This document shows positions 27,477-27,552 of a stretch of 64,000 nt of DNA, in pieces (positions within the stretch are counted from its first letter, which is position 1; each line of letters begins with the position of its first letter). The DNA comes from a virus, in the IMG/VR virus record IMGVR_UViG_3300045988_096557. The stretch is one strand, 5' to 3'. Made by a program: the position numbers and the translations under genes. The notes under the pieces were generated by a model. It saw nothing but the letters and a program-made list of their open reading frames with translations. It ran no database searches and was not told the origin of the DNA.

Positions 27477-27552
27477 TGCGGAGTAGCGTAATGGTTTAGC
27501 GCAGGGGTCTCTAAAACCTCGGGAGTGGGTTCGAATCCCACCTCCGCTGCCA
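27477..27552 (+). tRNA. Amber suppressor tRNA (anticodon CUA), tRNA-Gln-derived
   Basis: Anticodon arm GGGGT-CTCTAAA-ACCTC; D-loop AATGGTTTA and ..CCGCTGCCA 3' end shared with tRNA-Gln(UUG) at 19299. Confidence 0.7.

Follow-up and report, generated by a model that had tools for sequence, protein, structure and literature searches.

Is the amber codon TAG a sense codon in this viral genome, and if so, which amino acid does it specify and by what means? The question is raised by a tRNA gene with the anticodon CUA at positions 27477-27552 of a 64,000-nucleotide stretch of IMG/VR virus record IMGVR_UViG_3300045988_096557; this whole stretch, in its 64-kb length, is referred to below as the window. 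An earlier note, made from the sequence alone, had proposed that TAG is reassigned to glutamine in a manner resembling genetic code 15, through a phage-encoded tRNA(CUA) paralogous to tRNA-Gln. Our analysis strongly supports the first part of this proposal, namely that UAG would be read as Gln through the phage tRNA(CUA), as judged from endolysin alignments, CAA/CAG exchanges in both directions, and tail-fiber paralogs. The explanation that best accounts for all observations jointly, to which we assign a probability of about 0.85 on sequence evidence, is that the window belongs to a phage of gut Clostridia in which UAG would encode glutamine, UAA and UGA would be the sole stops, the phage would supply the tRNA(CUA), and late functions would thereby be gated.

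The element at the center of this explanation is the following gene:

27477-27552, plus strand: amber suppressor tRNA with anticodon CUA (ARAGORN, Rfam RF00005, cloverleaf fold, orthologs)

ARAGORN called a 76-nt tRNA with anticodon CTA over exactly this span, the Rfam tRNA covariance model RF00005 scored 59.8 bits at 27477-27549 (gathering score 29), and the minimum-free-energy fold is a standard cloverleaf with the anticodon loop CUCUAAA, which confirms the cloverleaf and the CTCTAAA loop reported previously. The folding energy is not unusual (z-score of only -0.88 against shuffled sequences), so the support for a tRNA comes from the covariance model and from conservation, not from folding energy. 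The gene encodes its CCA end and shows G73, a U1xU72 mismatch, G2-C71, G10, and a canonical G18G19 and T-loop. Orthologs were found in five IMG/VR contigs, where the sole differences are at position 1 (T or C) and at one D-loop base, and the neighboring Ser(UGA), Leu(CAA), and Cys(GCA) tRNA genes are kept around the suppressor in the same five contigs. The sequence GCGTCTTGA occurs in three exact copies on the plus strand, at 10400, 19285, and 27460; the latter two lie 5 and 8 nt upstream of tRNA-Gln(UUG) and tRNA(CUA), respectively, and the GTCTTGA part is retained upstream of the suppressor in diverged relatives.

Genes were counted as plus-strand open reading frames (ORFs) bounded by TAA or TGA only, and such ORFs tile the window. 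In-frame TAG codons number 45 and fall in 18 of about 84 plus-strand genes (21%):

7353-8066, plus strand: uracil-DNA glycosylase (UDG; Pfam UDG), one TAG at 7458
20044-21165, plus strand: AAA-type ATPase, one TAG at 20074
21558-26025, plus strand: five consecutive tail-fiber-like genes with PHROG tail-fiber matches (21558-21815, 21812-22390, 22411-23472, 23490-24662, and 24688-26025), 16 TAGs from 21735 to 25450
28112-28321, plus strand: small ORF, one TAG at 28229, where relatives have TAG or CAA
33824-34582, plus strand: metallophosphatase, one TAG at 34361, within the Pfam domain
36538-37809, plus strand: RNA ligase (Pfam), one TAG at 36955
39405-39854, plus strand: ORF, one TAG at 39501, where relatives have CAG
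46660-47121, plus strand: ORF, one TAG at 46702, where relatives have TAG, GAG, or GAA
48700-49554, plus strand: cell-wall enzyme with NAGPA phosphodiester glycosidase and SPOR domains, two TAGs at 48931 and 49180
49557-50966, plus strand: endolysin with phage lysozyme, amidase_2, and SLH domains (Pfam), nine TAGs from 49674 to 50733
57651-57854, plus strand: small ORF, one TAG at 57663, with CAG there in 16 relatives
58201-59034, plus strand: protein with a transmembrane segment, a coiled coil, and a GIY-YIG homing-endonuclease-like domain (Pfam, PHROG), eight TAGs from 58303 to 58972
59334-59960, plus strand: ThyX thymidylate synthase, one TAG at 59472, within the Thy1 domain
62995-63999, plus strand: DnaB-like helicase running off the window, one TAG at 63298, within the N-terminal domain

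Pfam domains extend across TAG positions in UDG, the metallophosphatase, NAGPA, the lysozyme/amidase endolysin, ThyX, and the N-terminal domain of DnaB, in line with the claim that the TAG codons lie inside otherwise intact genes. The UDG gene starts with GTG at 7353, preceded by an AAGGAG ribosome-binding site. The accompanying claim that recoding reshapes every annotation is overstated, since TAG is confined to 18 of the roughly 84 genes and many long genes have none, including gyrA, gyrB, and the genes for the vault-like protein, NAPRTase, DNA ligase, and PhoH. Between 20 and 64 kb, plus-strand coding coverage rises from 0.853 to 0.914 when TAG is treated as sense, a moderate gain for a table-15-type reading over the standard one, and is 0.837 when TGA is treated as sense. 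When both strands are counted, reading TGA or TAA as sense also inflates ORFs in this AT-rich DNA. As the gain with TAG is real but modest on the plus strand, we relied on homology instead.

Comparison with relatives points to glutamine. For the endolysin, IMG/VR yielded 80 relatives, and the alignment comprised 53 distinct relatives and the window sequence. At three TAG columns, the non-TAG residues are Gln in 31 of 33, 49 of 49, and 47 of 47 sequences, and at three more Gln is the commonest residue (36, 28, and 22 sequences). Over the columns in which any sequence has TAG, Gln is enriched 6-fold relative to background, and the TAG at column 41 is kept in 20 distinct sequences. An apparent TAA at endolysin position 49821 in six relatives was rejected as a probable blastn misalignment; the protein alignment has no stop in that column. 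A comparison at the codon level covered all genes and related loci with 70-99% nucleotide identity. At TAG positions of the window, 62 distinct changes were seen in relatives, most often to CAA (13) and CAG (9); conversely, where relatives have TAG, the 47 distinct changes include 20 to CAA and 7 to CAG in the window. Because CAA is two substitutions away from TAG, these swaps represent a synonymous-type exchange and not mutational proximity. Relatives of the GIY-YIG protein have CAA or CAG at six of its eight TAG positions, and TAG stands opposite Gln in three pairings among the window's own tail-fiber paralogs, as had been claimed. In all, Gln dominates six of the nine endolysin TAG columns. 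PDB alignments of UDG cross the TAG at 7458, with Q, S, V, R, or A as the aligned residue, and those of ThyX cross its TAG in a column with R/E; both columns are thus variable, which makes Gln compatible but the alignments not decisive.

Gene ends complete this picture. All called gene ends in the window are TAA or TGA, and at 43 stop positions relatives have TAA or TGA (with six TAA/TGA swaps), a few sense codons at shifted gene ends, and never TAG. TAG occurs within 25 codons of the gene end in only two genes, 23490-24662 and 58201-59034; in the former, the last TAG is followed by the conserved C-terminal motif LILNGG/LILNCG/IIFNCG. At most one gene, 58201-59034, is therefore a candidate for ending in TAG, and it is the sole possible exception to the earlier statement that all genuine stops are TAA or TGA.

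Relatives also indicate what kind of virus this is. A megablast search with 24 kb of the window returned no match among GenBank phages and no annotated close relative. In IMG/VR, contigs with 98-99% identity are 105-146 kb long; further ones share about 80% or about 70% identity, and still more distant relatives exist. Reading TAG as sense adds 5-12 points of coding coverage in some related loci and nothing in others, which shows that recoded and standard-code members coexist; mean ORF length grows by 30-120 amino acids in the recoded relatives but not in the standard-code ones. The closest endolysins in GenBank phages are from Faecalibacterium, Oscillospiraceae, and Acutalibacter phages, and those in bacterial genomes from Oscillospiraceae, Flintibacter, Acutalibacter, and Colidextribacter. 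Endolysins 85% and 78% identical to that of the window are encoded by two contigs of about 148 kb binned into metagenome-assembled genomes (MAGs) of Eubacterium and Oscillospiraceae; judging by their size, these contigs are probably related phage genomes. The source is thus probably a large tailed phage (about 105-148 kb) of gut Clostridia, with a host likely to belong to the Oscillospiraceae. The candidate hosts (Oscillospiraceae, Acutalibacter, Flintibacter, and Colidextribacter) use the standard code.

TAG codons are distributed unevenly among the genes. They make up 32% of Gln-type codons in the five tail-fiber-like genes, 33% in the two cell-wall enzymes, and 40% in the GIY-YIG protein. 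The ratio TAG/(TAG+CAA+CAG) is 0.34 in the tail-fiber, lysis, and GIY-YIG genes together versus 0.027 in 28 genes of replication, repair, and metabolism (Fisher odds ratio 18, p = 7e-16). This bias is not a matter of base composition, since gyrA, gyrB, Sak4, and DNA ligase have an equally low GC content at third codon positions (GC3) and zero TAG; DnaB, with similar GC3, has one. Five regions stand out by a GC3 of 0.39-0.44 against a mean of 0.27 (28857-30377, 36538-37809, 45582-46478, 44867-45430, and 2447-3950); their genes encode Gln almost only by CAG, whereas the remaining genome favors CAA, and this combination suggests that they were recently acquired.

How, then, would the tRNA be charged? 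Three tRNA genes of the window are needed for comparison:

19299-19372, plus strand: tRNA-Gln(UUG) (ARAGORN)
19376-19450, plus strand: tRNA-Gln(CUG) (ARAGORN)
15840-15914, plus strand: tRNA-Trp(CCA), 71% identical to the suppressor, the highest overall value among window tRNAs

The suppressor and tRNA-Gln(UUG) have in common the 3' end TCCGCTGCCA and the D-loop core GTAATGGT, and acceptor pairs 2-6, U72, G73, and CCA are identical in the two. The reported match to the tRNA-Gln(UUG) at 19299 in D-loop, G73, and 3' terminus is therefore real, but the proposed paralogy to tRNA-Gln is only partly supported, by the acceptor end, G73, and part of the D-loop. The likeness does not extend to the whole molecule, for which tRNA-Trp(CCA) is nearest (71%), followed by Leu(CAA) (70%), Met (68%), and Gln(UUG) (68%). 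By region, the acceptor stem and discriminator are closest to Gln(UUG) (12 of 15 positions), the anticodon stem comes nearest to those of Ser(UGA), Cys(GCA), Leu(UAA), and Trp(CCA), and Cys(GCA) has the same T arm. The anticodon arm of tRNA-Trp(CCA), GGTCTCCAAAACC, and its T arm resemble those of the suppressor, the anticodon arm differing essentially at position 35. Ranking by overall identity against 30 window tRNAs and about 300 phage tRNAs assigned no isotype; the nearest non-orthologs were other suppressors. In sequence, the suppressor appears as a mosaic with a Gln-like acceptor end and Ser/Cys/Trp-like anticodon and T arms. Like tRNA-Ser(UGA), tRNA-Cys(GCA), and tRNA-Trp(CCA), the suppressor reads codons starting with U, and all four have the loop context A36-A37-A38. 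Considering the determinants of the modifying enzyme MiaA, this likeness may stem from a modification that all four require and not from shared ancestry.

At position 1, the suppressor has U (one relative has C) opposite U72, which leaves the 1:72 pair open in place of the canonical U1-A72. Glutaminyl-tRNA synthetase (GlnRS) opens the first acceptor pair upon binding, and an already open pair would fit this enzyme. The bacterial GlnRS identity set, as listed in passages of PMC9976931, consists of G73, U1-A72, G2-C71, G3-C70, G10, U34, U35, G36, A37, and U38; G73, G2-C71, G10, U35, and A37 are present in the suppressor.

The region upstream of the suppressor contains a further element:

27011-27039, plus strand: sigma-70/sigma-A promoter, perfect TTGACA-17-TATAAT (12/12 match)

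This promoter lies 22 nt before the ORF 27061-27387 and 466 nt before tRNA(CUA), with no terminator-like site found on the plus strand between it and the tRNA. It is found at the same distance in relatives of 77-80% identity, in which the intergenic sequence has otherwise diverged, and it likely drives the transcription unit of the suppressor. When at least 11 of 12 consensus positions were required for a strong promoter of the sigma-70/sigma-A type, 13 were found on the plus strand and 4 on the minus strand, compared with about 2 in shuffled sequences. All 13 have 17-nt spacers, are intergenic, and mostly read TTGAAA-17-TATAAT; only the one at 27011-27039 is perfect. Most lie 20-38 nt before a called gene start, and three lie 390-1440 nt from the next ORF, inside the tRNA array. 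Their locations (5711-18632, 27011, 44289, 57587, and 59957) are concentrated in the region of this array. Ahead of the tail-fiber and lysis modules, no promoter of this strength was found. These features suggest that host polymerase would make the suppressor early, and that the TAG-rich genes would depend on later, phage-specific transcription.

The resulting mechanism can be outlined as follows. The phage would supply the tRNA(CUA), which host RNA polymerase probably transcribes from the promoter at 27011-27039. A host enzyme, most likely GlnRS, would charge it with glutamine, as suggested by U35, A37, G73, G2-C71, G10, and the already open 1:72 pair. The charged tRNA would then compete with release factor 1 at UAG. 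Since UAG is concentrated in the tail-fiber, lysis, and homing-endonuclease genes, their full-length products should appear only once the suppressor has accumulated, and late functions and lysis would in this way be gated.

Several observations weigh against this explanation. UDG, the AAA ATPase, RNA ligase, metallophosphatase, ThyX, and DnaB carry one TAG each; TAG in these six genes of replication, repair, and nucleotide metabolism does not support a strict early/late division and implies that suppression must be active to some extent by the time these genes are needed. Three of the nine endolysin TAG columns lack Gln dominance (N/A/K in one, R/K in another, and mostly gaps in the third). 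The suppressor departs from the E. coli Gln set at 3-70 (C-G), A36, and A38, although C3-G70 is also found in the phage's own tRNA-Gln(UUG) and A36 is unavoidable in an amber suppressor. It furthermore contains the Trp determinants G73, A9, G2-C71, G4-C69, G5-C68, C34, and A36. Finally, the 64-kb window yielded no gene for a release factor or a synthetase.

The alternative that survives best, although we consider it rather unlikely, accepts that UAG is read as Gln through the phage tRNA but assigns no timing role to this, suppression being on from the start of infection. The uneven distribution of TAG would then reflect gene history and tolerance, with fast-evolving, low-GC "native" genes drifting to TAG and conserved or recently acquired genes not doing so; the purpose of the recoding might instead be to block expression in the wrong cell or by competitors. 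The perfect host-type promoter before the suppressor, which suggests early transcription, is consistent with this alternative, as are the TAG codons in DnaB, ThyX, UDG, and RNA ligase, the purging of TAG from all gene ends and not from late ones alone, and the zero or one TAG in the acquired-looking genes of high GC3. It leaves unexplained, however, the 18-fold odds ratio, which holds against gyrA, gyrB, ligase, and Sak4 of equally low GC3. Moreover, passages of bioRxiv 10.1101/2021.08.26.457843 describe the same bias toward lysis, tail, and homing-endonuclease genes, found independently in other recoded clades.

Far less probable is that UAG specifies an amino acid other than Gln. The most plausible candidate would be Trp, with the suppressor being a tRNA-Trp whose anticodon changed from CCA to CUA. 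The overall identity of 71% to the window's tRNA-Trp, an anticodon arm that deviates from it essentially at position 35, and the bacterial Trp determinants listed above would agree with such an origin. The homologs do not: invariant or near-invariant Gln occupies their TAG columns and Trp is almost never found there, and acceptor pairs 2-6 match those of the phage tRNA-Gln(UUG), not tRNA-Trp. In addition, a tRNA-Trp amber suppressor in E. coli is itself charged with Gln, according to passages of PMC9976931.

That TAG is still a stop codon, with the affected genes being pseudogenes or yielding truncated products or rare read-through and the tRNA(CUA) being incidental, is hardly credible. Raw ORF statistics, which are only modestly better with TAG as sense, leave some room for it, but domains and conserved motifs continue past the TAG codons, the same TAG positions are kept in relatives of 70-98% identity (for example, at endolysin column 41), the stop positions of relatives are never TAG, and ORFs lengthen in recoded relatives only. 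As for pyrrolysine, typical tRNA-Pyl lacks G18G19 and T-psi-C and has a 6-bp anticodon stem and one base between the acceptor and D stems. This reading, favored by the CUA anticodon only (the sole reason for the ARAGORN label "Pyl" at 27477-27552), was rejected as next to impossible on account of the canonical tRNA architecture (G18G19, the GTTCGAATC T-loop, two bases between the acceptor and D stems, and a 5-bp anticodon stem), the Gln at TAG columns of homologs, and the lack of Pyl synthesis or synthetase domains among the window's Pfam hits.

With glutamine as the preferred assignment, the open first pair of the suppressor deserves separate consideration. Among about 40 distinct phage tRNA(CUA) genes with the same anticodon arm, a mismatched 1:72 pair together with G73 recurs in contigs L102 (two genes), L113, and L125, and the combination is also present in two ordinary phage tRNA-Gln(UUG) genes and one ochre suppressor. 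Mismatches at 1:72 occur in 8 of 37 suppressors versus 9 of 187 other elongator tRNAs (p = 0.002). In an unrelated IMG/VR phage contig (at L090:2898-2972), a tRNA(CUA) occurs together with a tRNA(UUA) ochre suppressor, and the latter also has U1xU72 and G73. Within the window, the first pair is open only in the suppressor, an initiator-like tRNA-Met, and tRNA-His (14014-14089, plus strand), in which an encoded G-1 faces C73 but position 1 is mismatched (U1xC72).

One reading of this pattern, which we regard as improbable, is that the suppressor is one member of a recurrent class of Gln-type tRNAs in phages with a deliberately unpaired 1:72 position (pyrimidine/pyrimidine, with G73), comprising amber suppressors of at least four lineages, one ochre suppressor, and two tRNA-Gln(UUG) genes, and that a Thg1-like 3'-5' polymerase of the phage itself removes the mismatched 5' nucleotide and rebuilds it with U72 as template. 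If this were true, an efficient A1-U72 Gln acceptor would form only after the phage enzyme had acted, and 5'-end editing would control the code switch. In a milder version, the open pair would merely tune the tRNA for GlnRS and against tryptophanyl-tRNA synthetase. The window does encode a Thg1-like tRNA-His guanylyltransferase (43419-44273, plus strand; phrog_4717, E = 7.5e-87). This gene has 264 IMG/VR relatives, which among the matches listed (the best 80 of 264) are in phages of about 100-170 kb; as it is core to a very large clade, its co-occurrence with mismatch-type suppressors is uninformative. RNA ligase, the Thg1-like enzyme, and an AAA_33 kinase-like protein (36538-37809 and 43419-45430, plus strand), together with the metallophosphatase, form a possible tRNA repair kit.

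The suppressor is part of a large tRNA array. The plus strand holds all 31 tRNA genes and the one tmRNA that ARAGORN identified, within 10178-28613; the tRNA genes lie at 10178-21280 and 26736-28613, and almost all have an encoded CCA end. Directly before the gene, 19 of the 31 have TAT and 23 have NAT, which suggests a common context for 5' processing. The tmRNA (16751-17066, plus strand) lies inside the array, encodes the tag peptide DNDYFENYLAA*, and scored 114.6 bits with the Rfam tmRNA model. No tRNA-Tyr is among the ARAGORN calls in the window. A tRNA-like gene missed by ARAGORN (19620-19736, plus strand; 49.8 bits with the Rfam tRNA model, fold z = -3.1) has normal acceptor, D, and T arms and about 45 extra bases in place of the anticodon arm; it could be an intron-containing or otherwise unusual tRNA, perhaps the missing Tyr. 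The first of two tRNA-Leu(CAA) genes (10316-10389, plus strand) lacks a CCA end, pairs at 4 of 7 acceptor-stem positions, and may be degenerate or miscalled; the second, at 28307, is well formed. Elsewhere on the plus strand, 28857-33230 encodes a DUF2828/DUF7788 protein of 506 amino acids followed by an 813-amino-acid vault-like protein with major-vault-protein shoulder and repeat domains and an SPFH/Band-7 region, a vault-like pair in a phage. At 38057-42614 lies a module for NAD salvage and synthesis, consisting of a nicotinamidase (isochorismatase fold), a PRPP-synthetase-like protein, NAPRTase, and NAD synthase.

For annotation, the consequence is that gene calling with the standard code truncates or splits 18 genes, among them those for the endolysin, the five tail-fiber-like proteins, ThyX, UDG, and DnaB. 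We therefore advise translation table 15 for the contig of the window and for its numerous relatives in IMG/VR. Recoding of a stop codon together with a suppressor tRNA has already been published for gut phages, and the window is a further, clean example, from a lineage of about 105-148 kb that probably infects Firmicutes; the association of recoding with late or lysis genes, known from publications, is seen here again. Two small additions are the placement of the suppressor unit behind a perfect host-type promoter and the conserved first-pair mismatch. The passages of the literature at hand contain neither the mosaic suppressor, nor a conserved open first pair common to phage Gln-type tRNAs, nor the perfect host-type promoter.

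The closest known systems are the code-15 gut phages with suppressor tRNAs, for which passages of bioRxiv 10.1101/2021.08.26.457843 name Lak, crAss-like, Garnet, Amethyst, Agate, and Topaz phages. According to the same passages, the most recoded genes in these clades are those for lysis, tail, and homing-endonuclease proteins, recoded and standard-code members occur within clades, and the proposed role is to delay late proteins until suppression is established. TAG-to-Gln recoding in gut phages was validated by mass spectrometry (Peters et al, PMC9523058). Like the clades of Borges et al, the window combines TAG opposite Gln, a phage tRNA(CUA), and partial recoding (21% of genes here) with a concentration of TAG in structural and lysis genes and a homing endonuclease, low GC (36%), mixed codes among relatives, and a probable Firmicutes host that would use the standard code. 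It resembles the Agate clade in size (154 +/- 27 kb in those passages, a range that overlaps the 105-148 kb of the related contigs), in host phylum, and in mixed codes; no terminase was identified in the 64-kb window. The suppressor differs from that account in its conserved 1:72 mismatch, which the same passages do not mention.

A second comparison is offered by phAss-1 of the proposed Phassvirus, a phage of the human gut, about 136 kb in size, in which 41 ORFs contain TAG and suppressor tRNA genes are likewise encoded (Babkin et al, 2023, PMC10607447). It shares with the window TAG within ORFs and a phage suppressor tRNA, with three suppressor genes versus the one seen in the window, but has no detectable nucleotide similarity to it in the megablast of 24 kb. 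Decoding by tRNA-Pyl likewise turns UAG into a sense codon through a tRNA(CUA), but differs in that the fold is canonical here and the homologs have Gln. A further comparison is with the E. coli amber suppressors served by GlnRS, namely supE, the tRNA-Trp-derived su+7, and acceptor-stem mutants of other amber suppressors, whose determinants are given in passages of PMC9976931. They have CUA, U35, G73, and a weak or open first pair in common with the window tRNA, and in E. coli these suppressors insert Gln at UAG. The E. coli suppressors are chromosomal point mutants that act partially in a cell using the standard code, whereas the tRNA of the window is a conserved, dedicated viral gene in a genome from whose gene ends TAG has been removed.

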